Shown here: positions 12,614-64,000 of the stretch, piece after piece | How positions within the stretch are numbered: position 1 is the first letter of the stretch | Layout: each line of letters begins with the position of its first letter | Source of the DNA: an uncultured delta proteobacterium | GTDB taxonomy: Bacteria; Desulfobacterota; Binatia; UBA9968 | Length of the DNA: 64,000 bases | Direction of reading: 5' to 3' | NCBI GenBank assembly: GCA_963745035.1 | Contig: CAVUVW010000013.1 | Span: forward strand, 1,728,001-1,792,000 | Made by a program: the position numbers and the translations under genes | Notes under the pieces: model-generated | Database searches by the model: none | The model's input: only the letters and a program-made list of their open reading frames with translations | Told to the model about the DNA's origin: nothing

Positions 12614-12653
12614 TAAAAATCCTCCAGAAATCGCAGTACGCTTCGGTTGCGCC

Positions 12654-26977: not shown

Positions 26978-27005
26978 TAGTTAGGTTGGACGTGCTCCAG
27001 GCGCC

Positions 27006-44419: not shown

Positions 44420-44420
44420 G

Positions 44421-45191
44421 TCAGTTAGTCTTCTCGAAAATCTTAGCGCGCCATCCCGATTCGCTCGGAGCGAGGCAAAGCAATTCCAATTCGCCCAGCA
44501 ATCCGCTATCGGCGAAGCTAAAGGTGGACTCTTCGCCGACAATCACATGGTCGAGCACCTTCAATCCAAGCGGCCGGCTGGCGGCTATCAAATCCTGAGT
44601 CAGCATCCGATCCGACTCGCTGGGCTCTGCCACGCCGGATGGATGATTGTGCGCAGCGATCAGCGCCGAGGCGTTCACCTGCAACGCCCGCGCGACAATA
44701 TTCCGCAGCGATGGCCTGACAGCGTCCACTGAACCCTGGGCGATGAGCGCGTCGTCCAACAGCGCATTGCGCCGGTTTAGGTAGAGTACTCGGAACTGCT
44801 CCTCTGCCAGACCGCGCAGCCGCTCGCGCAAATATTCTGCCGCCGTCGCCGTGCTCTTCATCACCAAATGTCCACGCTGTGCGGGTATCGAAACACGCCT
44901 TGCAATTTCCATCGCCGCAATTAACTGGGCCGCCTTTGCGCCCTTCAGTCCCTTGATCTCCAACAACGCGATGACCGGAGCTTCCACCATCGTCCGAAGC
45001 GAGCCGAACTCCTTCAACAACTGCCGCGACATCTCAACTGCGTTTGTGCCTTTGTAGCCAACTCGGAGTAATATGGCGAGAAGTTCCGCATCAGAGAGCG
45101 CCTGCGCACCCTTCGACAGAAGCCGCTCTCGAGGCCGGTCCTCTTGCGGCCACGATGCAATACCAAGCTTCTTTGTTTTCGATGCGCGCAT
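44421..45191 (-). CDS. radC: RadC family JAB-domain protein
   Basis: DRPRERLL..GAQALSDAELLAILL, AHNHPSG...PSESD, LDHVIVG. Confidence 0.92.
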   Translation of the reverse strand: MRASKTKKLGIASWPQEDRPRERLLSKGAQALSDAELLAILLRVGYKGTNAVEMSRQLLKEFGSLRTMVEAPVIALLEIKGLKGAKAAQLIAAMEIARRVSIPAQRGHLVMKSTATAAEYLRERLRGLAEEQFRVLYLNRRNALLDDALIAQGSVDAVRPSLRNIVARALQVNASALIAAHNHPSGVAEPSESDRMLTQDLIAASRPLGLKVLDHVIVGEESTFSFADSGLLGELELLCLAPSESGWRAKIFEKTN

Positions 45192-45509: not shown

Positions 45510-45788
45510 GCGAAATGGCGGGTTCAGACGAGAAAGACCTATGGATCAGACTAGGAGACCGGGGAGAGCCGTGTTGTGATCCGTGATCGTGTGCGTGATT
45601 GCGGATCGAAGAATAGAATTGACGTACGACCCCGAGGTAAACGCTACCGCATACGAACCTTTTAATTTTCTGCGGCTGTGTGCAAATTCTTTACACTCCG
45701 TACCGCAATACCGTGATCGTGAACGGAGAAGTGCCGTGAGCGTGGGGAAAAAGGCCGTGTTCGTGGTTGTGGACGCGCTAGAGCAGTT

Positions 45789-46163
45789 CTAGCGTGATCG
45801 TGTTCGTGGTTCGCTTCCCAAGGACTGCGACAGCCGCGAAAGCATCTGAACCACCCGGTCATAGTCGGAGCGTAATTCGTGATACGTCTCTGGCGAAATG
45901 TAATTTAGATCGCGGGCGACAAGCGGCTGATAGCAGACTTCGCCCGCGGAGCCGCGCGCGATACCCACAAATTGGCGATACTCCTTGGTACCGAGCCTCA
46001 TAGCGCCTTCCATAAGGTTCATGCCGACTGAGATTGCGGCTCGCCGCATCTGATCGACTAGGCTATACATTTCCTCTCTCGGGAAGCTTTTCGTAACCGA
46101 ATAAATCTTCAGAGCCAGCTGATGAGCGAGTTTGAAAACATCCAAGTCTTCCACACTGTTCAT
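45789..46163 (-). CDS. Four-helix-bundle protein (23S rRNA IVS/bAvd-like), subfamily A copy 1
   Basis: EDLDVFKLAH...FPREEMYSLVDQMRRAAISV..NLMEG...ARGSAGE. Confidence 0.9.
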   Translation of the reverse strand: MNSVEDLDVFKLAHQLALKIYSVTKSFPREEMYSLVDQMRRAAISVGMNLMEGAMRLGTKEYRQFVGIARGSAGEVCYQPLVARDLNYISPETYHELRSDYDRVVQMLSRLSQSLGSEPRTRSR

Positions 46164-46381: not shown

Positions 46382-46440
46382 GGGAAACTTCCATGTTTCG
46401 AGAATTCTCGAAACGTCGAAATGTGAAGCCAGGCACGAGG
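46382..46440. repeat. Palindromic repeat GGGGAACTTCCACGTTTCGAGAATTCTCGAAACGTCGAAATGTGAAGTCAGGC; about 15 full or half copies in the window
   Basis: Copies at 46382, 47888, 49415, 49801, 51629 (half), 51820, 52035, 52781, 52881 (half), 54703, 56016, 57414, 58355 (half); reverse orientation at 16394 and 24153. Confidence 0.9.
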
Positions 46441-46499
46441 TGGGAGGCAGCAGGCGCGAGCCGGGAACAATACTCGGGAAGGAACCTTGAACTGGACCT

Positions 46500-46754
46500 T
46501 TACCTGTACACTTCCCGCCGATGTCTTACACGAAAAATCCTCACACGCCTGCGCGCATCATCGATATCGTAGACGACTCGATAATCTCCGATTCGGATGC
46601 GCCAATCATTTCGCGAGCCGGTTAACTTGTGGCAACCGGGTGGGCGTGGATTTTCGGCGAGGGCGTTTATGCGGGAAACGATACGATTGAAGATAGTGTG
46701 AGGCAGCGCTCGAAGATCGCGTTCAGCGGTCCGCTCAATTAGAATCTCATACAC
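46500..46754 (-). CDS. RelE/ParE family toxin
   Basis: AERDLRAL, NPRPPGCHKL, WRIRIGDYRVVYDI. Confidence 0.9.
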   Translation of the reverse strand: MYEILIERTAERDLRALPHTIFNRIVSRINALAENPRPPGCHKLTGSRNDWRIRIGDYRVVYDIDDARRRVRIFRVRHRREVYR

Positions 46755-47007
46755 CCGCAGTGTCCTTCAGAAAGTCGGCAAACTTGCGGAATTTGAGCGG
46801 CCTTTTCCTCATTTCCTTGAGCGTCTTGAGATCCTCCGCATCCTCCGCGCGCTCGAGCAACTCGCGATACTCCTCAATACCGAGAATGACGGCGGTCGGC
46901 CTTCCTCTACGCATTACGATTTCGGGGTCCCTTCTTTTTCGCTTTGCTTTCATGGTTTTCACCTTGTCTGTTTGGACGACAATATCATCCCCAAAAAGTC
47001 CCTTCAA
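46747..47007 (-). CDS. Phd/YefM-like antitoxin
   Basis: GRPTAVILGIEEYRELLE; overlaps the toxin start. Confidence 0.75.
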   Translation of the reverse strand: MKGLFGDDIVVQTDKVKTMKAKRKRRDPEIVMRRGRPTAVILGIEEYRELLERAEDAEDLKTLKEMRKRPLKFRKFADFLKDTAGV

Positions 47008-47309
47008 ATGGACGCCGTGACGCGCGACTCGTGAAGCCGAGACGTGATCGTGGTCTGATACCGTGAATCGTGGTCGTGAGTCGGATAATTGCCGTGAGCG
47101 TACCTTCCAAAGGATAAAGGCAAAAGGATAAGGGATAAATCCCGTGAGCGTGGGGAAAAAGGCCGTGTTCGTGGTTGTGGACGCGCTAGAGCAGTCTAGC
47201 GTGATCGTGTTCGTGGTTCGCTTCCCAAGGACTGGGACAGCCGCGAAAGCATCTGAACCACCCGGTCATAGTCAGCGAAAACCGCCGTGAGCGTGATTCG
47301 TGATCGTGT

Positions 47310-47663
47310 CTACCGATTGAGACTCTGCGAGAGCTTGGACAGCATTTGGATGACCCGATCATAGCCCGAGCGCAATTCCTGATACGTTTCGTTAGAGATA
47401 TAATTTAGATCGCGGGCGACAAGCAGCTGATAGCAGACTTCGCCCGCGGAGCCGCGCGCGATACCCACAAATTGGCGATACTCCTTGGTACCGAGTCTCA
47501 TAGCGCCTTCCATAAGGTTCATGCCGACTGAGATTGCCGCTCGCCGCATCTGATCGACTAGGCTATACATTTCCTCTCTCGGGAAGCTTTTCGTAACCGA
47601 ATAAATCTTCAGAGCCAGCTGATGAGCGAGTTTGAAAACATCCAAGTCTTCCACACTGTTCAT
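47310..47663 (-). CDS. Four-helix-bundle protein, subfamily A copy 2
   Basis: Near-identical to 45789..46163 except for the C-terminal ~30 aa. Confidence 0.9.
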   Translation of the reverse strand: MNSVEDLDVFKLAHQLALKIYSVTKSFPREEMYSLVDQMRRAAISVGMNLMEGAMRLGTKEYRQFVGIARGSAGEVCYQLLVARDLNYISNETYQELRSGYDRVIQMLSKLSQSLNR

Positions 47664-48056
47664 CCCCGTCCCTCCGAGAAGCCACGATCACGAACCACGA
47701 CCACGTTCTCCCCCACCCCCTCCTGACCACGAGCACGTATCACGAACACGTTGGCACGGCTACTGCGTGCCCGTTCAAATCGTTCAAACGCTGCGCTCAT
47801 CCGAAACCTGAAACCCGTTCCAATTGTTCCAACGGTTCCATCGCTTCGCTACGTTCCAAACGTTTAAATCCCAAAGACTAAGAGAGAGGGGAACTTCGAC
47901 GTTTCGAGAATTCTCGAAACGTCGAAATGTTAAGTCAGGCACGAACAACAGGCGTGAGGTCGGAAAGAAAGATACGTGTTCGTGATTTCCTTGATCGGGT
48001 GTTCAACAAAGATATTCTGTATTGACACTTTAAATTATCATGATAATCTAAACCGT

Positions 48057-49205
48057 GTGTTTAAGCGATCCTTATCGTTGCCGAAGGCCGGCATGGAGAG
48101 CTTCTTCCTCTGGGGACCGCGACAGACCGGCAAAACCACCCTGCTCAGGGCCGCCTACCCGGACGCCCTGTGGATCGATCTACTCAAGGCGGAGGAGTAC
48201 CGACGCTATCTGCAGAACCCGGAGCTGCTCCGTGCTGAGATCGCAGCGCAGAAATCCGTGCGCCATGTGGTCATCGACGAGGTCCAGAAGGTCCCGCCGC
48301 TCCTCGACGAAGCCCACTGGCTGCATGAAAACCGCGCCGTCCGCTTCGCTCTCTGCGGCTCGAGCGCGCGCAAGGTGAAACGCGGCCACGCCAATCTGTT
48401 GGGCGGACGGGCGGTGCGCTACGAGCTGCACGGCTTGACCGCTGTCGAGATCGGGCGTGAATTCGATCTGGAGCGCATGTTGAACCACGGCTATCTGCCG
48501 TCGATCTACTTGTCCGATCGTCCACAGCGCCTGCTCAATGCCTATGTGGCGGATTATTTGAAAGAAGAAGTCGCCGCGGAAGGGTTGGTTCGAAACCTTC
48601 CCGTATTCTCGGCCTTTCTCAACGCGGCTTCGCTCTCGGATACCGAGCTGGTCAATTTTTCCACCATCGCGCGCGACTGCGGTGTTTCCAGCGTGACGAT
48701 CCGCGGCTATTTCGAGATTCTCGAAGATACACTGTTGGGACGGTGGCTGCCGGCTTACGTCAAGCGTCCGAAACGGCGGGTCATCGCGGCGCCCAAGTTT
48801 TTCTTCGCCGACGTCGGCGTGGTCAACCACCTTGCCAAACGCGGCGAGCTACGGCCGAGATCGGAGCTCTACGGCAAGGCCTTCGAGAACTGGGTCTTTC
48901 ATGAGTTGACCGCGCATAACGCGTACGCCGAAGCCTTTGCCACGCTCGGTTATTGGCGCCTCGCCAGCGGCATCGAAGTCGATTTTATCGTCAATGACAT
49001 GCAGGTGGCGATCGAGGCCAAAGCCGCCGCCAACATTACTACCGATCATCTCAAAGGCCTCCGTTCCCTGGTGCAGGATCATCCGCGCATCAAGCAACGC
49101 CTGATCGTCTGCCTCGAACCCAAGCGCCGCCGCACCGAGGACGGCATTCTCGTCCTTCCCGCGTTGGAGTTTTCTCAGGTGCTCAAGAGCGGCGAGTTGT
49201 TCTAA
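48057..49205 (+). CDS. AAA_14 ATPase with DUF4143 domain
   Basis: GPRQTGKT, IDEVQK, GSSARK, KFFFADVG, EVDFIV....IEAK. Confidence 0.88.
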   Translation: MFKRSLSLPKAGMESFFLWGPRQTGKTTLLRAAYPDALWIDLLKAEEYRRYLQNPELLRAEIAAQKSVRHVVIDEVQKVPPLLDEAHWLHENRAVRFALCGSSARKVKRGHANLLGGRAVRYELHGLTAVEIGREFDLERMLNHGYLPSIYLSDRPQRLLNAYVADYLKEEVAAEGLVRNLPVFSAFLNAASLSDTELVNFSTIARDCGVSSVTIRGYFEILEDTLLGRWLPAYVKRPKRRVIAAPKFFFADVGVVNHLAKRGELRPRSELYGKAFENWVFHELTAHNAYAEAFATLGYWRLASGIEVDFIVNDMQVAIEAKAAANITTDHLKGLRSLVQDHPRIKQRLIVCLEPKRRRTEDGILVLPALEFSQVLKSGELF

Positions 49206-49462
49206 AAAGGATAAGGGATAAAGGCCGTGAGCGTGATTCGTGATCGTGAAAATGCCAGAGACGTGAGCGTGATCGGACAACTAACGCGATCGTGTTCCCA
49301 GCCGGAAAAACGCCGTGATCGTGTCTTGTCCTTCAGTGAGAACGACCGCGCTCGTGCTGGTGGACGTGATTCGTCCCGCTATGTGGAGCGTGATCGAGCT
49401 CAACAGACGCCCGCGGGGAAACTTCCACGTTTCGAGAATTCTCGAAACGTCGAAATGAGGCC

Positions 49463-49763
49463 CTAGCCTAGACGGCTCGTCGAGTTGATGATCTTTTCAA
49501 GTGCCTTCAACAGCCCCCGAGTCTCGCTGCGGTGCTTGAGCCAGTAGCGAACGTTCTTCCCGTCGCTGTCGTATCTCACGATATCGGCGGCGCGCAGCTT
49601 GGCCAGATGTGTGCTGATGGTCTGCACCGAGCGGCCGGCAAGCTTGGCCAGAGCGCTCGGCGTCATCGCGTCCGCCCGCATCGAGCAAAACAACGAGCTG
49701 GTAAATCACCGGATTCCCAAGTAAACGGCAAAGCCGCGATTCGCGATAGTCGGGTTCGTCCAT
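49463..49763 (-). CDS. ArsR/SmtB-family winged-HTH protein, frameshift near 49670
   Basis: LLGNPVIYQLVVLL followed by MTPSALAKLAGRSVQTISTHLAKLRAADIV in the adjacent frame. Confidence 0.75.
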
Positions 49764-50077
49764 CGCCAGCCATCTACGGCAAAACCGCCTCCGCTGTCAA
49801 TTCCACGTTTCGAGAATTCCCGAAACGTCGAAATGTGAAGTCAGGTATGAGGCAGGAGGCGGCAGGCAATAGTCAAAAAACTGGACCTCGGCCGTGTGCA
49901 GCTTTTCTTCGACCAGAAAGCCTATCCTCCTCGGTTCCGAGCACAGCGAGAAAGGACGTGTCGTGATCGTGCGGGACCAGCCGTTCGGGAGGGAGGACGA
50001 CGCTAATGGTGATCTGGGAACCTGCGGACAACTATCGCATCGTCGTAGGTAAAAAACGCCGAGTTTAGAAGCCAGCT

Positions 50078-50290
50078 CTATTTGCCGGCGGTTAACTCTG
50101 CTTCAAAAGGCCGCTCCTTGCGAAAACGGCTAACACCGAGAATGCTGAACCCGACTACTTGTCCATGTTCGTCGACTCGCTCCATCAACGCGTCGTGCGC
50201 AGTTTCGCGCATGAACCCCGGGGCATCGCTGAACCGTACCTCCAAAAAATCCCCTTCCGGATCGAACCAAACTTTCAGTTTTTCGGCCAT
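50078..50290 (-). CDS. DUF2283-family putative antitoxin
   Basis: VWFDPEGDFLEV...VDEHGQVVGFSILG. Confidence 0.75.
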   Translation of the reverse strand: MAEKLKVWFDPEGDFLEVRFSDAPGFMRETAHDALMERVDEHGQVVGFSILGVSRFRKERPFEAELTAGK

Positions 50291-50586
50291 AGGATTTCTC
50301 CTGCTTTAACCGTATCCGTGATATATGCTGTAATCACGAAAGCGTCGTCCGGTAGATACTTTACCACTACACACAACCATTTCCCACCGACTTGGGTTTG
50401 CCTGTAAAACTCGTAGAAAAGCTTTACGTCGTCATCGGAGCGCGATCGCCGCACCTCGCTCGGTGTTTGCAATACTCGCTCAAGCTCATCCGCCATTACC
50501 GCCATTTCTACATGTTCCAAGATATGCGCGAGTCGCTCGTCAGTCAGCCGAACAGAAGTGCCAAAGCAATCTCGGATCACTTTCAT
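50275..50586 (-). CDS. Putative RNase toxin (BECR/DUF4258-like) paired with DUF2283
   Basis: LTDERLAHILEH...KWLCVVVK....AFVITAY. Confidence 0.65.
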   Translation of the reverse strand: MKVIRDCFGTSVRLTDERLAHILEHVEMAVMADELERVLQTPSEVRRSRSDDDVKLFYEFYRQTQVGGKWLCVVVKYLPDDAFVITAYITDTVKAGEILWPKN

Positions 50587-50706
50587 AGACGGAAGATACG
50601 GCAGTGTGCCATGCGACGCAATAAAGTCGAGTGTGAAGGCCCATAGTTTTGAACTGGCCCGACGTGGCCGACAGAAGACCCGTAACTATGTCGTCGAAAT
50701 GAGAAA

Positions 50707-50967
50707 CTACTTCCCCAAACCCAGGCGCCGACGCAGTTCCCTGGCCGAGATGGCGCCTTCCTTTTTTACACGGCCTCTGGAAGTCTCTATGATCTTGAGA
50801 AACTTGCGGTTGGTGCTCAGCGCTAGAGTCTCTTCATCCGCGTTCCGTATCGGAATAACGGCCGCGAATGGTTTTCCCGCCTTGTAGACGACGACCGGAG
50901 CTTTTCTTGCTTTTGTGGCGTATTCGGAAAGGGGTCCTGACGCCTTTTTGAACTCTATTTTTGTCAT
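50707..50967 (-). CDS. Phd/YefM-like antitoxin
   Basis: ASGPLSEYA....PVVVYKAGKPFAAV. Confidence 0.7.
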   Translation of the reverse strand: MTKIEFKKASGPLSEYATKARKAPVVVYKAGKPFAAVIPIRNADEETLALSTNRKFLKIIETSRGRVKKEGAISARELRRRLGLGK

Positions 50968-51314
50968 AGCTTTATTATTTCGCCGCCGATCCGTACGCGA
51001 TCTCTCTCTTTTACTCCGATTGCCAGAACGGTAACTGTCGGCCGGGGTTCGTCGCTGACTTCATAATACACTCTGAGATCGCCAATGCGAAGTTCCCAAG
51101 GAGCCACTGGATTCAGTCTCATCGGCTTTCTATTTCGGGTCTCCACGGTCGGCTGATTGGCCAGCTGCCGGTCCACAGCATCGACTACGCTTCGTTGCTG
51201 TCGAGTAGCAAGCCGCCGGAGATGGTCCTCTGCTTCCGGAGAATATTCAATGACGTAGGCCAAGCTATTGTCCTTGCGCCTTTTGGTGTCGCGTGATTTC
51301 GTCCGTAAAAACAA
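50964..51314 (-). CDS. RelE/ParE family toxin (start probably TTG near 51263)
   Basis: IEYSPEAEDHL...WELRIGDLRVYYEV. Confidence 0.8.
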   Translation of the reverse strand: MFLRTKSRDTKRRKDNSLAYVIEYSPEAEDHLRRLATRQQRSVVDAVDRQLANQPTVETRNRKPMRLNPVAPWELRIGDLRVYYEVSDEPRPTVTVLAIGVKERDRVRIGGEIIKL

Positions 51315-52255
51315 TCAAGGCGTTGGTCGGATCGGATGACCGCGACAAAGTTCTTCGCAATTTAATGGATTGGACGGGTTTTGGGCAAGTGGGTTTGCAA
51401 AACGTGGGGCCGGAGTCGTGGAGCAACAGGCGTGAGGTGCGAAAGAAAGATGCCTGCGCGTGGTTCGTGATCGTGTCCGAGCCCGGGTCCGTTCAAGGCA
51501 TTCAAAGCGAACCCGGACGGGGCCTCCTTTAGTCGGACAGGGTAGCCCCGTTCCAGCCGTTCAACCGCTTCGCTCCGTTGAAAACGTTGCAGAGCAATGC
51601 GGTTCGAAGGTGCAAGGTAAGACAAGACGGGAAACTTCCACGTTTTGTTAAGGATAAAGGCAGAAGGATAAAGGATGAGGCGATAAAAACCGTGAGCGTG
51701 GCGGAAAAGGCCGTGTTCGTGGATCGTGGGCGCGCTCGGACCAGTTGCTAAGCGGTTCAGTGGCCGACCGTTACTGTTAAAGACAGAGAACTCATACGTC
51801 GGAAAACGGCGTTGATCAGACTTCCACCCTTCGAGAATTCTCGAAACGTCGAAATGTGACAGCCACGGCACGAGGTGGGAGGCAGCAGGCAATAGTCAGA
51901 AGAGGAACAACTGGAACTCGGGCCGTACGCGGCTCTTCTTCGACCAGAAAGCCTGTCTTTCCTTTCTTTGCCTCCGGCGGCGCCATTGAGCGGGCAAATC
52001 GCATCGATCTACGGGCTCGGATCGAATGCTTTGAGGGGGAATTGCATGTTTTGAGAATTCTCAAAACGTCAAAGGGTCAATCCACCTTTGACGATGCGTC
52101 TATGACTCTCTCCAGCGTTTTGAGAAGCCCTTTCATTTCTCCTTTATGCTTGAGCCAGTCATTTTTAAGGCTAAAGGCGAAAGGATAAAGGATAAGCGGC
52201 TCTAAAAATGATAATGCCAAAAGTATAAAAGGATAAACACGACCTGCCGCCCGAA

Positions 52256-52621
52256 TTACCGCTTTTGACTTTGCGCTTTGGCTTTTATATTCCGAACAAT
52301 GCTTACAAAAATTCCTTTCAGCTCTCCCGTCTCTTTCATTATTGCAGCTAATCTTTCGCTAGCGACAAATCCAGAATCGGCGAGTAATTCCAACCAGTAT
52401 TCGCTTTCTTCCAGCTCCTGTAAACATCCTTCGATTTTGCTGATAAAGTCGGGGTTGGATTTGGCTCGCGACGCCTCGCGATACTGCGCACCGACCGAGG
52501 TGGCGGATCGCAACAGCTGTCGCCCCATGATCTGTGTTTCCGTTTTTTTCGGCAATTCGGCATAAAGCCGGATCACGGAAAGCGCGTAGTCCTTCGTTCT
52601 GCCCTTGAGATCGCTCTTCAT
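52256..52621 (-). CDS. Four-helix-bundle protein, subfamily B copy 1
   Basis: DLKGRTKDYAL...[25 protein letters not shown]....[12 protein letters not shown]. Confidence 0.9.
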   Translation of the reverse strand: MKSDLKGRTKDYALSVIRLYAELPKKTETQIMGRQLLRSATSVGAQYREASRAKSNPDFISKIEGCLQELEESEYWLELLADSGFVASERLAAIMKETGELKGIFVSIVRNIKAKAQSQKR

Positions 52622-53077
52622 AAAAGGATAAGGCCCTCATCCTTTATCCTTTCGCCCTTATCCTTTTCAAATGCTGATACACGATCGGATTGCCGAGCAA
52701 GCGACAGAGCCGCGACTCCCGATAGCGCTTCTCGTCCATGGCCGGCGATCTAATCCCCACCCCATTCCCCTGTCAAGACGCACGTTTTGAGAATTCTCAA
52801 AAGGTCAAAATGGGAAGTCAGGCAAGCGGCGACAGTAGGAAGCGCCGGTTCAATGTTCAAGAGTTCAAGGTCAGATTCGGAGGGGAACTTCCACGTCGGA
52901 AGCTCGAACAAAGGCCGCGCATGATTTCTATATTCACTCGGATCGCGCGTTCACTATCGAGCGGCGTCGAATTGTCGAAACGCTGGAAGGACTTTTTGAT
53001 TGCTGCTCGGAGATACCGTCTTAGGGCGAGGAGGGGAGCATGAAGACTCCCCTCCTGCTGTTATTACGGACGGGCGA

Positions 53078-53497
53078 TTACTTCTTTTCTTTGGTCGTCG
53101 GTTCTTTGCTCATGGGTTCCGTCTTCTCTTTCTTCGTTTCCGTGCCCATGGCCGTCGTTTTGCCGACTCCGAGCTTCCCGGCTGTCTGGTTATCCAATTG
53201 TCCGGTCGCCTTCAGGCCGCTCGCCTGTTGGAATTCTTTCAGCGCCGCCCGGGTTTTGGGGCCCATTCTGCCGTCGATCGGCCCGGGATCGTTGCCCTTG
53301 GCCTTCAAAGCCTCTTGAACCTCTCTGTAGTCTGTCCTGCCGGTCGTCATCTTTCCCATCTCCGGCTTCTTGTCCATTTCCCCCATCTTTTCCGCTTTAG
53401 CCGGCGGCGCTTGCTTTTCCTCGGCCGCTCTCGCGGATACACCCAAGGTCAACAAAAGCGCGCTAGCCAATACGGTTCTACCAATTGCAGTAAACAT
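53078..53497 (-). CDS. Secreted peptidoglycan-binding domain protein
   Basis: VQEALKAKGNDPGPIDGRMGPKTRAALKEFQ. Confidence 0.85.
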   Translation of the reverse strand: MFTAIGRTVLASALLLTLGVSARAAEEKQAPPAKAEKMGEMDKKPEMGKMTTGRTDYREVQEALKAKGNDPGPIDGRMGPKTRAALKEFQQASGLKATGQLDNQTAGKLGVGKTTAMGTETKKEKTEPMSKEPTTKEKK

Positions 53498-53583
53498 AGA
53501 TTCGTCCTCCTTTTACCTGCGGTCCAATCTAATGATCCGCGGCTGAGTTGGTTGTCTAATAGTGGACCGTGTTGAAAAGAAAT

Positions 53584-53620
53584 TTAGACCTGAGGCGCCG
53601 ATTCGGCGCCTCAGGTCTAA
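53584..53620 (-). terminator. Strong hairpin, probable intrinsic terminator
   Basis: 17-bp perfect stem ttagacctgaggcgccg-att-cggcgcctcaggtctaa; U-rich tail on the minus strand. Confidence 0.75.
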
Positions 53621-53643
53621 TTAGGCTCTAGGAAATCTCGCGT

Positions 53644-54201
53644 CTAACTGGGATTGACGGCGAGCTGGGAAATCTTCAACGCGACGCCAAGCGGCAAGGG
53701 ATTATCGCCGGTGCTCAGAGCCGTGCCCAATCTTTCGATCTCCCACGACGAAACCTTTTCAGCGGCCGGCGCTTCGGTTACGGCGGCCTGCAACTTATCG
53801 GCCTGGGGCAGTTTGATCAGGTATTTGACGTTGTTCCCGTCGCTGAGTGTCACCGAGAGAACCATCTGTTTGCCTTCTTCGGTCGCCAAGGTTTGCAACC
53901 CGGCAATGCGACTTGAAAGGCTGGTCTTGCTCACGGTATCGGCGTAGAGCCAGATGAAGGCGCCGACAAAGGAAGCCATCACCAGCCAGCCGTACTGGCC
54001 GACCCGTTTTTGGCGCTTTATCGACCGGCTTCTCTGTTGATCGAAGAATTTGCGGTAGGATTCTTTTTCCGCCGTCACTTTCTTGACTGGATCCTGATCC
54101 GTGGAACTCGGCGGTTGATTGAAACCGAGGTCCAAGCTGTTCAGTATCATGCCCAGGATCACCAACCCTAGCGGAATGGCGATTAAAAATAGAGGATTCA
54201 T
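53644..54201 (-). CDS. Hypothetical membrane protein
   Basis: Two hydrophobic segments; AAGGAG RBS. Confidence 0.6.
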   Translation of the reverse strand: MNPLFLIAIPLGLVILGMILNSLDLGFNQPPSSTDQDPVKKVTAEKESYRKFFDQQRSRSIKRQKRVGQYGWLVMASFVGAFIWLYADTVSKTSLSSRIAGLQTLATEEGKQMVLSVTLSDGNNVKYLIKLPQADKLQAAVTEAPAAEKVSSWEIERLGTALSTGDNPLPLGVALKISQLAVNPS

Positions 54202-54753
54202 AATTCTCCTTTTGCAGGCTTTTTATAGCCTTTGGATATTGGAAGAGGAGTCTGATCCGGGCATACGTTCGTTTGTCGAACCCGAACGGGAAGTCATTGC
54301 CACCGTTGGTTATGTCGTGTCGACGGGTCTTTACCTCTTGCGCGCCATTACAGCTCTCGCGTTTAGCATAAGATAACCATCCGCGGCGGGAATAAATGTC
54401 TAATAGTGGACAAGTCGAAAAGAAATAAAAAGTAGGCGTGAGGGTGAGCAACCGATGAAGCGAACCCGTTCAAATCGTTCAAGCCGTTCAACCGCTACGC
54501 TCCGTTCAAGACGTAACGGACTAATGCCGGTTCAACGGTTCAATCGTTCAAAAGTTCAACGTCGATCAGGCAATAGGCAACGGGCAACAGTAAAGAGAAG
54601 GCCTTCAACCGGTCCCCGGAACCTGCGCCTGAGTCCAATCAAAGGGTTCAAACCGTTCCGGGTTAGCACCCGCGCTCAAGGTCCGACGTTCCAATTCTCC
54701 CAGGGGGAACTTCCACGTTTCGAGAATTCTCGAAACGTCGAAATGACAACGGG

Positions 54754-55290
54754 CTAGCGGCCGCCGTAGGCGGCGCCTTTTTCTTCTACTAGAAATCCGA
54801 TTTTTCTCTTCTTCGGCTGCGGCGGCGTCATGAGTTGGCGGATCGCGTCAAACACAACCTTGAACTGAGCGTCGTATTTTTTCTCCAGGTCAGCCAACTT
54901 CCGGGCGAGCTGGCTATTCGACGCCAGCATCTGCCGGAGCCGAACGAAGGCGCGCATAATCTCGATATTCACCTGTATTGCACGTCGACTGTTCAGCACT
55001 GACGAAAGCATCGCGACGCCTTGCTCGGTGAAGGCATACGGCGCGTATCGCCTACCTCCGCGACCCTTGTTTGAGGTCGCAAATTGCGACCTCAAAGAGG
55101 CGACTTCTTCTGCGGTCAGCTGAAACATGAAATCTTCTGGAAACCGGGCTCGGTTACGCCTGACCTGCTCGTTGAGCCGCTTGGTCGTCACACCATATAG
55201 GGCAGCGAGATGAACATCGATCAAGACCTTATGACCACGAATCAGCAAAATCGATCGTTCGATGCTCTTAGTCGGAGATGTTGTTGCCAT
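54754..55290 (-). CDS. ORF6N domain DNA-binding protein
   Basis: [41 protein letters not shown]. Confidence 0.9.
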
Positions 55291-55435
55291 TTGGACTCAC
55301 TCCATTTGACAAGTCCGGTGAAACGTCAGCGGATCTTATGGGATGGCCGGGTTTGGGACAAGAGGGACGCGAGGGCAGAAGAGACGTGGTCGTGGGGTTT
55401 ACTTAAGGATAAAGGCAAAGGGATAAAGGATAAGT

Positions 55436-55801
55436 TTAACATTTCGAAATTCTTGACTTGGCTTTGGTGTTTACGACGATGCTAACGAATATACCTTCAG
55501 TTCACCGGTTTCTTTTTTAACGGCGGCCAATCTTTCTTCTGGAACAAATCCGGAATCGCCGAGCAATTCCAACCAGTATTCGCTCTCTTCTAATTCCTGC
55601 AATGAGCCTTCGATCTTGCTGATAAAATCGGCGTTGGACTTGGCTCGTGACGCTTCGCGATACTGCGCGCCGACCGAGGTGCCGGATCGTAAGAGCTGTC
55701 GTCCCATGATCTGCGCCTCTGTTCTCTTTCGGCAATTCGGCAAAAAGCCGGATGACCGAAAGTGCATAATCCTTCGTCCTGATTTTCAAGGCGCTATTCA
55801 T
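55436..55801 (-). CDS. Four-helix-bundle protein, subfamily B copy 2 (two compensating frameshifts)
   Basis: Paralogue of 52256..52621 with the same 366-bp span. Confidence 0.8.
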
Positions 55802-56066
55802 TATCGCCGTTTGAGCATCCCTTATCCTTTATAATTTCTCCTTTAAAATGGTTCGCCATCGCCGTCGGGGCTTATCCTTTATCCTTCAGCCTTTATCCTT
55901 TCAACTTGTGCCGTGTTCGTGTTCGTGTCGGATAGCTACCGTGAACGTGATTCGAGTCGATGGCGGCTCTGGCAAAACAGCCGTTCAAAACGTCCGAGGA
56001 GTAAAACCAGGACAAGGGAACTTCCACGTTTCGGGAATTCTCAAACGAAACGTCGAAAGGTCGCGC

Positions 56067-56297
56067 TCACGCCGCGGTGTACTGACGGACTTCGACCTGA
56101 ATTCCTAACTGGGCGGCTTCAGCCGCGGATCTGAGAAGGCTGGCTGTAATGTTTTCATCAACGTATTCTTCACCGCAATTTGCGCAGACCCGAGCTGGAA
56201 CACCCTTGAAGACCAAAGTGGCTCCGTCTTTGTCCAACGTCACGGTCGCCGTCCCAGCCTTTGTTTCGCCCTTCTTGCAAATCACGCATTTCATCAA
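56067..56297 (-). CDS. YgiT/MqsA-type zinc-finger antitoxin
   Basis: MKCVICKKG...VPARVCANCGEEY. Confidence 0.85.
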   Translation of the reverse strand: MMKCVICKKGETKAGTATVTLDKDGATLVFKGVPARVCANCGEEYVDENITASLLRSAAEAAQLGIQVEVRQYTAA

Positions 56298-56578
56298 GTC
56301 TTTCTCCTTTTAAAATCCGGTTCCCATTCCTCCGGATCCGGCTCATAGACGGTAATGACGATATTTTCCTGATCATCCAGATTATCAGCGAGGACGACGT
56401 GAATCGGTCGGCGGCCGTTCCATCCGAGAACTAGACGACTCGGATATGGCGTGTCATCAGGATAATCTTCCACCGTTTCTCCCGTAACAATAACATGTCG
56501 AACTTCGGTCTCCGTTATAGTGCGCTGATACATACGTTGAATGGCGTGGACTCGAAAGACCAATCGGTTAAATACCAC
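56294..56578 (-). CDS. DUF4258 putative toxin
   Basis: HAIQRM.QR.I, EDYPDD.PYPS.L, IVITVYEPD. Confidence 0.85.
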   Translation of the reverse strand: MVFNRLVFRVHAIQRMYQRTITETEVRHVIVTGETVEDYPDDTPYPSRLVLGWNGRRPIHVVLADNLDDQENIVITVYEPDPEEWEPDFKRRKT

Positions 56579-56828
56579 GCAAGAACCTCACCTGTTTCCA
56601 TGATTCGTGAGCAGACCGTGACATAGGAGCCCACGGTCTGGATTCGAGTTCATCAAGCCACGTCTCGCGAGCAACGCGAAGGCGGGATGATTTCACCCCA
56701 TAACGATATTCGCCTAACACGATAACGGGCAGATGGATATCGGTGGCTGATTGCTGAAGACAATTGAGCAAGCGTTGGTTTGCGTCGGCAAAATCGGAAA
56801 CAGCGTTGGTATCGAGGATCACTTCCAC
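56568..56828 (-). pseudogene. VapC/PIN toxin, C-terminally truncated
   Basis: ILDTNAVS...IVLGEY; only 86 aa and lacks the distal acidic motif. Confidence 0.7.
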
Positions 56829-57100
56829 TCCCGGGGATCGATCCTCTCAAATTCCTCATCAATTATTTTTTGGATGCTGCGCGTGTCCGTACGCATGTCC
56901 TCCGATTTAGCGAAAGCTCCATAAAGTTTCATCCATCGAGGCTCGCCCTTCTCTAGCTCTTCGTCGCGACCAATTTTGTCCTCAATGGCTTCAGCAACGA
57001 GTTGTTCTAAGCTAAGGCCCTTCGCGGCCGCCAGGGTTTTGGCACGTTTCAGCGTCTTTTCGGATATCTCGACTGTTGTCTTCATAGATCTTACTCCCAC
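56819..57100 (-). CDS. VapB-like RHH antitoxin
   Basis: MKTTVEISEKTLKRAK..AA..GLSLEQLVAEAI. Confidence 0.75.
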   Translation of the reverse strand: MGVRSMKTTVEISEKTLKRAKTLAAAKGLSLEQLVAEAIEDKIGRDEELEKGEPRWMKLYGAFAKSEDMRTDTRSIQKIIDEEFERIDPREWK

Positions 57101-57524
57101 ATGACTGAGTCTACTGGATTCGGCGGGTTTCGGGCAAGAGCGTTCTTAAAGGATAAGGGCAAACGGATAAAGGATAAACCGAGAGAAGGGAAAGGGGACC
57201 GGAAAAAATAAGCTCTGAGACCAATCTCAAAGTTTAGTTTTCGCAATCCTTGATTTCGCCTTCGTGTTCCTGACGATGGCGACGAAGATTCCTTTTAGTT
57301 CACCGGTTTCTTTTTTAATCGTGCTCAATTTTTCTTGTGGAACGAATCCGGAATCGCCGAGCAGTTCGTAGACCGGCTTAACGGGTTCAAGAGTTCAAAG
57401 GCGGATTCTCGGAGGGGAAACTTGCACGTTTCGGGAATTCTCGAAACGTGGAAATGTGAAGTCAGGCACGAGGCGTAAGGCAACAGGCAACAGTACCGAA
57501 ACTGCGAACTTGAGGGTAGCCCTC

Positions 57525-57715
57525 CTATTTTGGATCTGGGATACCGAGTTGGCGGCAAATCTTGCGTGCTAGAAAATTGGCGATCTCCGTATGTCTTGGA
57601 ACGGTTGTAACGCGGCGCGGATCGGCAAGATTGACGTACTTGCTGTGCTTTGCCCCTTCGTCGGCGAGAACGCATCCGAACCGCTCAAGTGTCGGATGAA
57701 CTCGCGTCGTTTCAC
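57525..57715 (-). CDS. HicA-family toxin, one-base frameshift near 57686 (not in ORF track)
   Basis: MKRREFIRHL / RFGCVLADEGAKHSKY...TTVPRHTEI...ARKICRQLGI. Confidence 0.75.
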
Positions 57716-57916
57716 TTACACCTCGAGTTGCTCGATCACGATTTTGTTTTTGGGTAGCTTAGATAGATCCAGTGGCTCGCGTATCATCCGCACCGCATCG
57801 ATGAGATTCTCACGTGCCTCTTCCAGCGTCACCCCCTGTGTCAACGCACCGGGAACATCATCGGTCCATGCCACCCACCATTTACCGTCTTGCACAAAAC
57901 TCGCCTGAATCTTCAT
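57716..57916 (-). CDS. HicB-family antitoxin (short)
   Basis: WWVAW..DVPGALTQGVTLEEARENLIDA. Confidence 0.85.
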   Translation of the reverse strand: MKIQASFVQDGKWWVAWTDDVPGALTQGVTLEEARENLIDAVRMIREPLDLSKLPKNKIVIEQLEV

Positions 57917-58450
57917 AAAAGCAATCTCCTATCGGCACTAATTTTACGCGAAACAGCAGGGCGATGCCAATCGTCGGAGGGAGAATGTTACAAACGAAAA
58001 GCGGTTCCAAGGGTTCCACTCGTTTCCAGACGTTCCAATCGTTCCGGAGCAACGCACTTCAAGAGTTCAAGGTCGAGAATTGCCCGGTCATAACGCAAGA
58101 AAACAGCCGTGATCGTGATTCGTGATCGTGTCTACCGGTTAAGAGTCTGCGACAGCCTGGAGAGCATCTTTCAAAGGATAAAGGCAAACGGATAAAGGAT
58201 GAGGGATAAAAACCGTGAGCGTGGGGGGAAAGGCCGTGTTCGTGGATCGTGGGCGCGCTGGAGCAGTCTAAGCGGTTCGTGGCCGACCGTTACTGTTAAA
58301 GACAGAGAACTCATGCGCGGAAAACGGCGTTGATCAGTGCCAGCCCTTCCCGTCATTCTCGAAACGTCGAAATGTGAAGTCAGACACGAGGTGGGAGGCA
58401 GCAGGCGCGAGCCAGGAACAATACTCGGGAAGGAACCTTGAACTGGACCT

Positions 58451-58705
58451 TTACCTGTAGACTTCCCGCCGATGTCTTACACGAAAAATTCTCACACGCC
58501 TGCGCGCATCATCGATATCGTAGACGACTCGATAATCTCCGATTCGGAGGCGCCAATCATTTCGCGAGCCGGTTAACTTGTGGCAACCGGGTGGGCGTGG
58601 ATTTTCGGCGAGGGCGTTTATGCGGGAAACGATACGATTGAAGATAGTGTGAGGCAGCGCTCGAAGATCGCGTTCAGCAATCCGCTCAATTAGAATCTCA
58701 TACAC
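58451..58705 (-). CDS. RelE/ParE toxin, duplicate of 46500..46754
   Basis: Two amino-acid differences. Confidence 0.9.
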   Translation of the reverse strand: MYEILIERIAERDLRALPHTIFNRIVSRINALAENPRPPGCHKLTGSRNDWRLRIGDYRVVYDIDDARRRVRIFRVRHRREVYR

Positions 58706-58958
58706 CCGCAGTGTCCTTCACAAAGTCGGCAAACTTGCGAAATTTGAGCGGCCTTTTCCTCATTTCCTTGAGCGTCTTGAGGTCCTCCGCATCCTCCGCG
58801 CGCTCGAGCAACTCGCGATACTCCTCAATACCGAGAATGACGGCGGTCGGCCTTCCTCTACGCATTACGATTTCGGGGTCCCTTCTTTTTCGCCTTGCTT
58901 TCATGGTTTTCACCTTGTCTGTTTGGACGACAATATCATCCCCAAAAAGTCCCTTCAA
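58698..58958 (-). CDS. Antitoxin, duplicate of 46747..47007
   Basis: Two amino-acid differences. Confidence 0.75.
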   Translation of the reverse strand: MKGLFGDDIVVQTDKVKTMKARRKRRDPEIVMRRGRPTAVILGIEEYRELLERAEDAEDLKTLKEMRKRPLKFRKFADFVKDTAGV

Positions 58959-59191
58959 ATGGACGCCGTGACGCGCGACTCGAGACGTTTACTTAAGGAT
59001 AAAGGCAAAGGGATAAAGGATAAAAACAAAAAGACGTGAGCGTGGGGAAAGGCCGTGTTCGTGATCGAGGATGTGCTAGAGGAGCAAGCGATGATAGAGC
59101 GCGAAAAGGATAAAGGACTACGACAACCTGAGAGCAAGGGCAAAGGGACCAAGGGCAAAGGGATAAAGGCTCTGAGAGCCAATCTCAAAGT

Positions 59192-61598
59192 TTAGTTTTC
59201 GCAATCCTTGATTTCGCCTTCGGTGTTCCTGACGATGGCGACGAAGATTCCTTTTAGTTCACCGGTTTCTTTTTTAATCGTGCTCAATTTTTCTTGTGGA
59301 ACGAATCCGGAATCGCCGAGCAATTCCAACCAGTACTCGCTCTCTTCTAATTCCTGCAATGAGCCTTCGATCTTGCTGATGAAATCGGGTAGAGTAGAGA
59401 ACAGGCGCAGCATTATTTAGGTTGACCCTTGGCCGTATCCGTCGTTTCCAACTTCGTGCCCGTTTAGGATCTCCGTGAAACACAGTCCTGTTCCCCCTCA
59501 TCAAACCGTACTTGCAGTTCTCCCGCATACGGCTTTCCGATCATCTTCACTTCAAGGCATTGCGAGTTGACCGATATCGGGCATGTACTGTGGGATCGTG
59601 ACCATTCCAAACTCTTTATAGAGCCGGGACGCTGGCCACTGGCTCGATCGAAACCCTTTGATCTGTCGTCGCCCCCGCAGGTACTTGAGCATTCGCCGCT
59701 CCAGAAAATATCGCTGCCGGGTAAACACCGCGTGCTGTTATGCAGGTGGAAGTAATTTACCCACCCCGCGACATACCGATTGACCCGATCCATCACCTCT
59801 TGTTGGGGAAGGCAATGGGTCCAGCGCGCCGTCAGCGCTCGCACTTCGTCTCGAAAGCGCCGCTCGGACTTTTGCGCGATGGTTGCGTCAACGTGATCAT
59901 CCGACTGCTCTTGTAGACTGATTCTGCGAGTAAAAGCTAAATCCCAGAAAATCAAAGCTCCCATACGAGCATCGACCATCCGAGTCTTGTTCGTCGTTCA
60001 ACTTTAGCTCCATTCGCTCGATTATCTGCCTGCACTTTCTTGCACCGTCGCTTCGATTCTGCCGCGCATCAGGATGACAAAGTCATCGGCATATCGCACC
60101 AGCTGCGCTGTCGAGCCCGTGCTACGACAATACGATCGGAACATCCGGTCAAATAGATGCAGGTAAATATTGGCAAGTAGACGGGGAGATCACTCCGCCT
60201 TGAGGCGTGCCCCGCTCGGGTCGGTTTGACTGCGCCGCTTCCCTTCCTCGTCTTCTTCCACCACTGCCGCACTGAGCCACTGCTTGATCCAATGCAAAAT
60301 GTGCCGGTCGTTGATTCGTGTGGCAATCAGCTTCATGAACTTATCGTGGGCAATGCGTGTCGAAGTACTGCTGAAGGTCAGCGTCTAACACATACGGATG
60401 ACGCACGGTAGAGCGCCTACCCGGATAGCACCGACAGCTTGATGAGCGTCTCTTCTTCGGACGAAATCCAAAACTGCAATCCTCGAAGTCCGCCTCAAAG
60501 ATCGGCTCAATGACGATCTTCACCGCCATCTGTGCTACTCGGTCTCCGAATGGTCGGTATCCCAACGGCCTCTTTCTTCCATCGGCCTTCGGGAATAAAG
60601 ACCCGGCGTACGGCTTGCGCTCGGTAGGTCTTTTCTTTTAGTTCCTGTTGAAGCGTCAATAGAAACTTCGCTTCGCCTTCGCCAGTCTCGATAGACTGAA
60701 AAGTTACCCCGTCGATCCCGGGGCTCCGCCATTGGCTCGAACCAAGCGATAGGCGTGCTGCGATAATATCCTCACGCCATACTTTGTCCGGCAATAGATA
60801 AAAGCGAAACTTGGGCTCTCTCTTGACCTTGAGATACAGTTTGCGCTGGAGGTCTCGAATCTTCTCAGGTGTTTGTAGCCTCACGGCAATCACCTTCTCC
60901 TTTCCTCGTTAACAAACTTAATGAAAGCAGGGCGCCTTCCCTCCATCCGGCATTGCCCGATTTCTTAGGTACTACTCGCCCCTCCGACTTCTCGCTTGCC
61001 TGAACTCGGTTTTCGTTTGCCCTTATACCGAGTCCATCGCAGCCATCACCCGCGACAAACGAGATCTCCTGCGTTACCCAGCAACAGCTTCTCTCACATC
61101 CCGTCCCGACGACCCCGGAGAGTTCATCTGATGCTTCTTCGGTTAGCTTCACAGATGACTGCGGCCTTCCCCATCTGACAACAGGGTCGGCACTCTCGAT
61201 TTGCAAGTGACGAGGCTCTGTATGGGTTCCTGATTAGTACGGTCTGTGAGTTTGCGATTCTCCGCTGCTGTTCTCTGATCATTTGCCTCCTTTCTCTTTG
61301 ATTCGGAGTTTTCTCGATCCGCTTAGTCTCAAGAGTCGCCTCTCAAAACCGGTTCTTCGCTAACGGGGTGAACCGTTAATTCCCCGCACCGGACTTTAAC
61401 CGGTTAGCTGCTCTGCTTCCGCGGCGCACGTCAGACTTGCCCCGCGATGCCTCGCGATACTGCGCGCCGACCGAGGTGCCGGATCGCAAGAGCTGACGCC
61501 CCATAACCTGCGCTTCTGTTCTTTTCGGTAATTCGGCAAAGAGCCGGATGACCGAAAGTGCATACTCTTTGGTTCTGACTCTTCAGATCGCGATTCAT
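59192..61598 (-). CDS. Four-helix-bundle protein, subfamily B copy 3, split by a group II intron (exons 61598-61430 and 59388-59192)
   Basis: 5' exon ends ...[10 protein letters not shown](K)SD; 3' exon resumes [19 protein letters not shown]. Confidence 0.85.
59389..61429 (-). mobile_element. Group II intron
   Basis: 5' GTGCG at 61429; domain V AGCCGTATGCGGGAGAACTGCAAGTACGGTT (~59503-59535); domain VI ending CTCTAC; internal RT. Confidence 0.92.
59552..60893 (-). pseudogene. Group II intron reverse transcriptase/maturase, multiply frameshifted
   Basis: [37 protein letters not shown] and GWVNYF spread across several frames. Confidence 0.85.
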
Positions 61599-63894: not shown

Positions 63895-64000
63895 TCAGTC
63901 GCGCCAGGGGTTGATCGCGACGTGGATCGCCTCCTCGCCCGGGATCTCCTGGCCGATCAGCCTGAGGGCGAGATCGGCTTCCTTGAGCGACACCTCGTGG
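63895..64000 (-). CDS. Second MDR dehydrogenase paralogue, C-terminus only
   Basis: HEVSLKEADLALRLIGQEIPGEEAIHVAINPWRD* matches the C-terminus of the neighbouring gene. Confidence 0.75.
   Translation of the reverse strand, partial: HEVSLKEADLALRLIGQEIPGEEAIHVAINPWRD

Follow-up and report, generated by a model that had tools for sequence, protein, structure and literature searches.

Truncated 3' ends of genes are scattered through an accessory island in a 64,000-nt stretch of DNA from an uncultured delta proteobacterium of the Binatia (GCA_963745035.1, contig CAVUVW010000013.1, positions 1,728,001 to 1,792,000; hereafter the window). The explanation we lean towards, with modest confidence, is that deletions, segmental duplications, crossovers between repeats, and one nested insertion left these orphan tails behind as relics at the DNA level, and that their bias towards 3' ends comes from linkage and survivorship. 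Most likely, 3' ends predominate because they are attached to conserved repeats that stand just after the stop codon. This explanation draws on the fragments and their homologies, on junctions that several fragments share, on the position beside stop codons of a palindrome that we call D3, and on one rearrangement observed in conserved synteny. It would also involve a selective filter favoring 3' relics.

Five such tails had been picked out in an initial annotation of the window. All five are real, had been placed to within a few bases, and stand far above chance. Their description as systematic tails of genes that are intact nearby fits less well, since several of the tails copy one ancestral junction, the two ORF6N tails are paralogous, and one parent gene (B3) is interrupted by a group II intron and has an additional C compared with its tail. 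Also overlooked were a 3' tail of an ArsR-like gene (ArsR2, 52080-52163), three 5' fragments, and an internal piece of an ORF6N gene.

Junctions and synteny

We compared the window with 128 related loci (L001-L128), mostly titled Binatia and chosen for holding D3. The most direct evidence on how fragments arise comes from two of these. Positions 5528-6482 of L017 are 94.4% identical to L055 over 962 nt, from the middle of a NERD gene through a unit in which an ArsR-like gene is bracketed by two D3 copies (D3-ArsR-D3). Synteny between the two loci extends to the left of the break as well, and about 3.1 kb of L055 is missing from L017. The 3' orphan in L017 stands in conserved synteny with the full-length gene in L055, which points to a 3' orphan made in place by rearrangement of DNA.

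In addition, 5' and 3' fragments meet at single junctions in three places, namely methylase and helicase genes in the window, PIN and S23p genes in L067, and S23p and NERD genes in L017. Paired fragments at one junction are the signature of plain deletion across two genes. The junction in the window (43571-43680) fuses the 5' 60% of the methylase gene to a 5'-truncated helicase gene. The methylase fragment (43571-44542) matches positions 1-134 of 221 of the N6_N4_Mtase profile, and the helicase matches positions 87-164 of 165 of RNase_H_2, the start of its first domain being gone. The features of the window described here and in the next two sections lie on the minus strand, except for D3 copies, which are given without strand.

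Breakpoints are often located in repeats. The window has two copies of a Phd-ParE pair (46404-47031 and 58355-58982) that are 98.1% identical over 628 nt, and the edge of this duplication is the center of D3. An internal ORF6N piece breaks off at the right half of D3. The only insertion-type event is that of an S23p unit, B1, in ArsR2.

Orphan tails of S23p genes

The island holds five S23p genes (A1, A2, B1, B2, and B3) of the PF05635/TIGR02436 four-helix family, and profile matches to this family were obtained for A1, A2, B1, and B2. The four-helix protein was first known from intervening sequences (IVS) of 23S rRNA. A2 (47310-47663; PF05635, E = 1e-36; TIGR02436, E = 8e-33) is intact and has its own divergent 3' end, and its locus is 94.4% identical over 464 nt to that of A1 (45789-46163; PF05635, E = 3.8e-35). 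Past the end of A2 stands its right arm (47274-47309, 'S'), a run of CACGA-type heptamers that pairs with a left arm at 47680-47705, and then the first orphan tail, T1 (47196-47273). T1 is the last 26 codons of an A1-type gene, with 77 of 78 nt identical to 45789-45866, and the wider region (47130-47273 compared with 45722-45866) is 95.9% identical over 145 nt (E = 1.7e-61). It is followed by a composite module of a CACGA array and then a TTATCC array (47103-47195; repeat families D13, D17, and D18). The composite moves together with the A tail and stands before a Phd-ParE pair, and it is found by nhmmer without the tail in many Binatia loci.

The same arrangement of right-arm end, A tail, and composite recurs as a decayed copy at 51650-51845 (nhmmer, E = 8.8e-53), which lies directly after a D3 palindrome and is 90% identical to 58174-58406, and as a second decayed copy at 58174-58358 (nhmmer, E = 9e-55), which lies after half a D3. 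A further tail, T2 (58083-58170), contains the last 12 codons and stop of an A2-type gene, the right arm, and the first 11 nt of an A1-type tail, with foreign DNA on either flank; 71 of the 85 nt in 58083-58167 match the last 12 codons of A2, its stop, and its 35-nt right arm (47261-47345). The junction of an A2-type right arm with an A1-type tail is therefore present four times, at 47.2, 51.8, 58.1 (in part), and 58.3 kb. Because it recurs in decayed form, these tails stem from one event and were copied along with the module.

Relative to the A1 locus, that of A2 is longer by 93 nt but otherwise equivalent, and the adjacent 93-nt segments are homologous, the end of A2 and T1 being identical at 63 of 99 positions with mismatches at all bases. 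Judged from these sequences, A1 is probably a chimera of an A-type body and an orphan-type tail. A deletion between the 93-nt homologues would turn an A2-type locus into A1, with the orphan becoming the working 3' end, if the change ran in that direction. Orphan tails may in this way be re-used for swapping S23p C-termini.

The third S23p tail, T3 (57149-57367), consists of about the last 44 codons of a B-type gene and its right arm. Positions 57152-57367 are 89% identical to 59093-59326 over 234 columns (E = 7.8e-75), and the coding part is identical to B3 at 133 of 135 positions, with one mismatch and one indel. T3 starts 30-55 nt past the D3 that stands after hicA, right after the TTGAAC-type array that is usual behind D3. 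Microhomology at the start of T3 amounts to at most 3-5 nt. B3 itself is composed of exon 1 (61432-61598; tblastn with B1, residues 8-56, 84%) and exon 2 (59192-59388), split by a group II intron (59389-61431; RF02005, 76.3 bits; RF00029, 46.1 bits). The intron is inserted in frame and is probably no longer autonomous, with its reverse transcriptase (RT)/maturase broken into at least four open reading frames (ORFs) and only the GIIM domain recognized. At the homing site, the sequences of B1 and B2 are similar to that of B3 but not identical. Close to its end, exon 2 is frameshifted by an extra C (+1) compared with T3, which retains the ancestral reading frame.

Inverted arrays of short repeats flank every S23p gene, of CACGA type in the A genes and AAGGATA type in the B genes. 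The arms measure 35 nt in B1 (86% complementary), 30 nt in B2 (90%), 26 nt in A2 (85%), and 18 nt in A1 (89%), and an S23p gene in L063 has inverted arms of 30 nt (70%). Whole units measure 420-510 nt. This is the architecture reported for 23S rRNA IVS in the available passages of PMC4990558, and it raises the alternative that S23p units are IVS-like mobile insertion elements, that S23p tails are 5'-truncated or overwritten copies of them, and that the split ArsR-like gene is an insertion site. Complementary flanks (z ≤ -1.7) are commoner at S23p genes (four of six) than at genes that are neither S23p nor ArsR (1 of 15), and the termini of the B1 unit are paired in its RNA fold (z = -3.9). Moreover, arrays of the right-arm kind stand solo, without a left arm, at four sites (47103, 51650, 57149, and 58174), and no solo left arm was seen. 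We nevertheless consider mobile S23p units an unlikely account of the tails. Three of the four solo right arms come from one duplicated module, the same arrays occur across Binatia intergenic DNA that has no S23p genes, the unit encodes neither a transposase nor a recombinase, and tails of ORF6N, PIN, RelE, and NERD genes are left unexplained. The idea is partly compatible with the deletions, duplications, and crossovers that we favor, and would cover only some of the fragments.

The one case that fits insertion is B1. The B1 unit (52164-52673; 510 nt), a 121-codon gene between 35-nt inverted arms, stands in place of codons 23-73 of ArsR2. On one side is a 5' fragment of 22 codons (52674-52739), 95% identical to residues 1-21 of a 99-aa ArsR-like ORF in L044, and on the other the 3' tail of 26 codons plus stop (52080-52163), 81% identical to residues 74-99 of the same ORF and followed by a D3-like palindrome. 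Both gene ends are kept, and the old 3' end now lies 510 nt downstream. The suggestion in the initial annotation that circles integrate into genes and displace their 3' ends is borne out to the extent of this one displacement, but 51 codons are lost, no target-site duplication was found around B1, and there is no sign of a circular intermediate. Among the eight S23p units or tails examined for split genes, only B1 splits one. When another ArsR fragment with this insertion site was sought, L026 proved to have a 5' ArsR fragment but no S23p unit after it.

Fragments of ORF6N, ArsR-like, and VapC genes

The intact ORF6N gene (54754-55290; PF10543, E = 1.5e-34) has its stop a few nucleotides before D3. 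Tail 1 (49873-49975) is decayed and has lost its stop, with D3 and then the promoter of ArsR1, an ArsR-like gene, coming after it, and tail 2 (51895-52007) lies between two D3 copies. With an HMM built from four full ORF6N proteins, tail 2 matched model positions 151-170 (E = 5e-4), whereas tail 1 alone gave only E = 2.7. The two tails are paralogous at the DNA level (49801-49923 compared with 51822-51954; 82% over 133 columns, E = 1.4e-22), and both encode the motif GFLVEE. The internal ORF6N piece (about 52911-52985, roughly residues 88-114) matched model positions 95-114 (E = 2e-3), and on its 3' side it gives way to the right half of a D3.

ORF6N copies that are truncated at the 5' end and followed by D3 also occur elsewhere, keeping 114 codons in L037, 109 in L025, 69 in L068, and 44 in L017. 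Copies in the short loci L049, L080, and L096 keep 73, 65, and 20 codons, with too little upstream DNA for certainty.

Compared with ArsR2, which is split, ArsR1 (49463-49763) is full-length; it has a +1 frameshift relative to its orthologues in L017 and L055 and has D3 on both sides. A 5' fragment of vapC (56568-56828) covers positions 1-61 of 120 of the PIN profile and runs into the start of a DUF4258 gene. A displaced 3' end of this gene was sought beyond the DUF4258/zinc-finger pair, but PIN queries detected no such fragment anywhere in the window, and visual inspection of 55900-56066 revealed nothing that resembles PIN.

The D3 palindrome

D3 is about 38 nt long and imperfectly palindromic, with the core ACGTTTCGAGAATTCTCGAAACGT, as exemplified by the copy at 49416-49472 (repeat family D3). 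The window contains about 11 copies, nine of them within the 12 kb between 46 and 58 kb; a fuzzy scan located the others near 46389, 47895, 49801, 51822, 52042, 52778, 54711, 57422, 24156, and 16389. Exact matches to a 20-nt degenerate D3 pattern occur in at least 129 stretches, mostly records of metagenome-assembled genomes (MAGs) of Candidatus Binatia or 'Deltaproteobacteria'. Among the matches listed, the closest to the window is L094 (92%-96% over 85-153 nt).

The palindrome is oriented with respect to genes. When eight fully palindromic sites were left out, a frame of at least 60 codons ended within 30 nt to the left of D3 at 45 of 130 oriented sites, compared with 16 of 130 in the mirror control. 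Like repetitive extragenic palindromes (REP) and bacterial interspersed mosaic elements (BIME), D3 is a short, imperfect, extragenic palindrome near gene 3' ends. REP sequences number tens to hundreds per genome. The D3-ArsR-D3 unit of the window (49415-49835) is kept in L017 and L055 at 79% identity, and in several genomes the ArsR-like gene has a sigma-70-like promoter (TTGACA-17-TAGAT-like) that starts immediately behind the upstream D3. D3 may be the operator of the ArsR-like regulator, and more generally a role as an operator or boundary element is possible.

Every orphan tail keeps its native downstream DNA, which is the CACGA/TTATCC composite for T1, the B-type right arm for T3, and D3 for the ORF6N and ArsR tails. 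The two sides of D3 differ in the fragments near them. Of 22 curated 3' fragments, six start on its right at a distance of 30-165 nt, and no clearly 3'-truncated gene abuts its left side, with one ambiguous case (PIN3 in L060). As DNA was fetched equally from either side of D3, the asymmetry is independent of sampling. Junctions at half a D3 also recur, at 58347-58366 and near 52890 in the window, and left-half-only copies are present in L010, L087, and L107.

Such polarity suggests a second alternative, that D3 is a recombination or nicking site for a REP-associated tyrosine transposase (RAYT) or another recombinase. Copying or exchange would then act on units whose D3 end is constant and whose opposite end varies, and recombination at secondary sites would leave D3-tail-D3 cassettes in the style of integrons or dif modules. 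We regard this as improbable, although a good deal of the pattern would fit: the presence of D3 in many MAGs, its orientation beside stop codons, the minimal D3-ArsR-D3 unit in the window, L017, and L055, the recurrent half-D3 junctions, the fragments that start right of D3, the ORF6N truncation series, and the absence of solo left arms. The window also encodes a RAYT-type Y1 transposase of 296 aa (33015-33905, minus strand) that passes the NCBIfam cut-off (NF047646, 84.8 bits compared with 80 bits). However, whereas RAYT genes are flanked by their cognate REPs, this gene has no D3-like site within 8 kb and no flanking pair of palindromes, and no tyrosine or serine recombinase or integron integrase was found among the 99 ORFs of the window or 110 ORFs from five multi-D3 loci. 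Junctions lie anywhere between 0 and 162 nt from D3, hence there is no fixed cleavage point, and homologous recombination between D3 copies accounts for the breakpoints at D3 centers. The TTGACA-17-TAGAT promoter beside D3 suggests an operator role, and the sole RT in the window is broken. The RAYT protein has a C-terminal extension of about 150 aa.

The site itself is also unlike that of an integron. attC sites measure 55-140 nt and carry R''/L''...L'/R' boxes (RYYYAAC / GTTRRRY), whereas D3 is short, and such boxes are absent from it by reading. An integron cassette array was rejected as a candidate, as there is no Phage_integrase match in either ORF set and D3 is not attC-like.

A more far-reaching version can be envisaged. 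The right-anchored truncation series would be the footprint of polar copying that runs backwards from a 3' hairpin, either D3 or an S23p right arm, via RNA or single-stranded DNA, nicked or primed by a RAYT-type HUH enzyme or an RT that the Avd-like S23p proteins assist. S23p units would then be the mobile form of 23S rRNA IVS, and the intergenic scaffold of Binatia would be largely debris of these units. We consider this speculative and quite unlikely.

Census of 3' and 5' fragments

The bias towards 3' ends that the initial annotation described was counted in the window and the 128 related loci. We used 42 Pfam-supported small genes as queries against 651 kb of non-redundant DNA, which gave 105 full-length, 31 raw 3', 8 raw 5', and 4 internal calls away from locus edges (a further 16, 5, and 1 calls at edges were left uncounted). 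On inspection by hand, 17 of the 31 raw 3' calls were kept, two were ambiguous, and 12 were rejected as products of over-long query ORFs, divergent full-length genes, or exon 2 of B3. Of the eight raw 5' calls, four were kept, two rejected, and two ambiguous. Fragments of the window that other searches had revealed were then added: T1, T2, both ORF6N tails, and the helicase counted as 3' fragments, and VapC and the methylase as 5' fragments.

The curated total is about 22 3' fragments compared with 6 5' fragments, or about three to one (p near 0.004 if events were independent, which the fragments are not). The numbers are unequal, as had been claimed, but 5' fragments do exist (ArsR-like, VapC, and methylase). 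The bias is real but moderate, and is inflated by duplicated modules and by locus sampling. The loci were selected for D3, an element on the 3' side of genes, and tails of ORF6N and ArsR genes are over-sampled as a result. A census with all 2380 ORFs (69 3', 53 5', and 62 other non-edge calls) was discarded because many queries were spurious across repeats or antisense, which can invert the 5'/3' label.

Linkage and survivorship

DNA-level erosion could produce a 3' bias in several steps. Each stop codon in the island would be physically linked to a conserved module just behind it, which is D3 or, in S23p units, the right inverted-repeat arm, and these modules would be the start and end points of duplications and crossovers, adjoining the next promoter in the ArsR case at least. 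In a co-oriented array, the loss of a dead gene's own promoter and 5' half would be harmless, whereas a deletion running downstream would take the control region of the next cassette and would be counter-selected where that cassette is a live toxin-antitoxin (TA) pair. A promoterless 3' piece would be silent, while a 5' piece would still be expressed. Tails could then multiply passively through duplication of the module that carries them. In the passages of PMC13617665 that describe chromosomal TA islets, truncated toxins and 'DNA remnants' are frequent.

Several points weigh against this explanation. The join in L017 between the S23p 5' fragment and the NERD 3' fragment (L017 5340-5600 compared with L055 9990-10210 and 6800-6960) contains about 60 nt of filler. 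The ratio of 3' to 5' fragments comes from loci chosen for D3, itself 3' of genes, and the fragments were curated by hand. We infer, rather than observe, the selective filter, that is, the harm done by downstream deletions and the silence of tails. Neutral deletion alone does not readily explain the one-sidedness of D3 (none on the left compared with 6 of 22 on the right). Finally, the series of 5'-truncated ORF6N copies, which keep 20 to 114 codons in different genomes, would also fit polar copying.

The initial annotation had offered incomplete reverse transcription as one origin of the tails. Transcripts would be copied from a 3' hairpin, perhaps with Avd-like help from S23p proteins, and the 5'-truncated cDNA integrated. 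In its favor, there are series of truncated copies that share their 3' end and differ in where the 5' end falls, and a group II intron is present. S23p proteins also appear to be distant relatives of Avd, the accessory protein of diversity-generating retroelements (DGRs), with scores below family cut-offs (bAvd in Pfam, E = 1e-3; NF033474, E = 7e-4). We found no positive support for the process and consider it very improbable. The only RT is frameshifted, the partners and positions of junctions vary, and there are no template and variable repeats with adenine-specific mismatches. Paired 5' and 3' fragments and the syntenic rearrangement are DNA-level events, and the Phd-ParE copy ends in the middle of a palindrome rather than at a transcript end. 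A DGR made up of a gene end and its orphan copy was rejected, as the mismatch pattern is wrong and no intact RT is adjacent.

Chimeric assembly at repeats, which would give false truncated genes, is scarcely credible even in a region dense in 40-630 nt repeats, given that comparable fragments occur in independent records on contigs of 103 kb to 3.6 Mb (L017, L022-24, and L054-55), that truncation points lie inside unique coding sequence rather than shared repeats, and that decayed copies at 82%-90% identity indicate age.

Comparison with known systems

The island resembles the eroding chromosomal TA islets of Photorhabdus, in which type II TA clusters lie in permissive spots together with truncated toxins and non-ORF remnants, and loss proceeds through truncation and small deletions (passages of PMC13617665). 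An asymmetry between 3' and 5' fragments is not among the findings in those passages. The island described here differs in the conserved repeat mosaic around it and in that many of its relics are not TA genes (S23p, ORF6N, and ArsR-like).

The 23S rRNA IVS described in the available part of PMC4990558 is 428 nt long and comprises an S23p ORF and heptamer repeats, with a stem of 28 bp at its termini, and a mobile-element origin has long been proposed for it. S23p units in the window resemble it in having a four-helix gene in a unit of about 430-510 nt, inverted repeats that can form a long stem, and short tandem repeats near the ORF. However, the IVS sits in a helix of 23S rRNA and is excised by RNase III, whereas the units here lie between protein genes, with one inside an ArsR-like gene, and the 64-kb window contains no rRNA. 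The two arm families, CACGA-type and AAGGATA-type, are also unlike the IVS. Literature searches on S23p, Avd, and IVS and on Binatia repeats listed no publication that deals with the repeats described here or with S23p units located outside rRNA. How IVS originated and whether they move was described as unclear in 2016 (PMC4990558). A lineage with many S23p units outside rRNA, along with truncated copies, would make IVS mobility testable by comparison of strains.

REP/BIME systems with RAYT genes, as covered in parts of PMC3337134 and PMC3116915, share with the window short imperfect extragenic palindromes just after genes, repeat mosaics, and the presence of a RAYT gene. Compared with these, D3 appears to have a low copy number, is concentrated in accessory islands, and is kept across many species-level genomes, and the RAYT gene of the window is not flanked by D3. 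As a palindrome that stands beside stops in many Binatia genomes and brackets an ArsR-like gene, D3 offers a handle on the organisation and regulation of TA islands in uncultured bacteria.

Integron arrays with TA cassettes, according to parts of PMC13108822 and PMC11023631, likewise consist of co-oriented, small, TA-rich genes, each followed by a hairpin-forming repeat, and the idea that TA cassettes restrain the loss of neighboring cassettes comes from that work. In contrast, the window has no integrase, its genes have their own promoters, and housekeeping genes are interspersed elsewhere in it.

The succession of A2 and T1, and the two halves of ArsR2, superficially resemble the outcome of integrating elements that replace a 3' end. 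Such elements, among them tRNA/tmRNA islands and icd phages, supply a replacement 3' end and leave the old one orphaned downstream. Only about 35 nt lies between the end of A2 and T1, with no element and no integrase, and their junction is an old module that has been copied several times. Overall, the tails are a mostly ordinary finding. Gene relics of this kind show how accessory islands turn over, and what appears to be a system consists partly of copies of copies.

The island and its surroundings

The G+C content of the window is about 53% as far as about 61.7 kb, where it rises to 65%. Between about 44 kb and that point, nearly every gene is small, accessory, and on the minus strand. In addition to the S23p genes, the island encodes RadC, the two Phd-ParE pairs, a RelE-type pair, VapB with the truncated VapC, HicB with a frameshifted HicA, two DUF4258 pairs (MqsA-like), ORF6N, and ArsR-like proteins. 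Frameshifts are carried by ArsR1, B2 (55442-55801), B3, hicA (57569-57715), and the group II intron protein, and the island is pseudogene-rich, which reflects general decay. It combines a type II TA cluster containing truncated and frameshifted members with non-ORF remnants, as expected of an eroding TA islet, and the same pattern is seen in L017, L024, L055, L063, and L078. The five multi-D3 loci are likewise TA-rich islands that resemble it. The repeat-rich island, with 52% G+C, ends about 20 nt past the stop of an NMT1-type binding-protein gene, at about 61700.

Outside the island, the window encodes FtsH, HpaB, an ECF sigma factor, binding proteins, an IS3 element, a STAND NTPase, and the RAYT-type transposase, and short repeat families form a mosaic in intergenic DNA along its entire length. 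A direct repeat of 237 nt with TTGAACG-type arrays (26745-26981 and 29151-29387; 92% identical) brackets ftsH (27006-28970) and a 57-codon ORF. The STAND-type NTPase (35947-39264, minus strand; 1105 aa) has a C-terminal PRTase-CE domain and a defence-like appearance, and an IS3-family element with orfA and orfB (40050-41203, minus strand) adjoins it. Three paralogues of about 350 aa (7476-8531, minus strand; 10326-11384, plus strand; and 11558-12676, minus strand) are 44%-55% identical, their sole family match being a weak, TctC-like one. The last 32 codons of a zinc alcohol dehydrogenase gene are repeated just upstream of it, at the edge of the window (63904-63999 and 62775-62855; 75% protein identity). 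The repeated stretch is probably not an orphan but the end of a tandem paralogue, the remainder of which would lie beyond the window.

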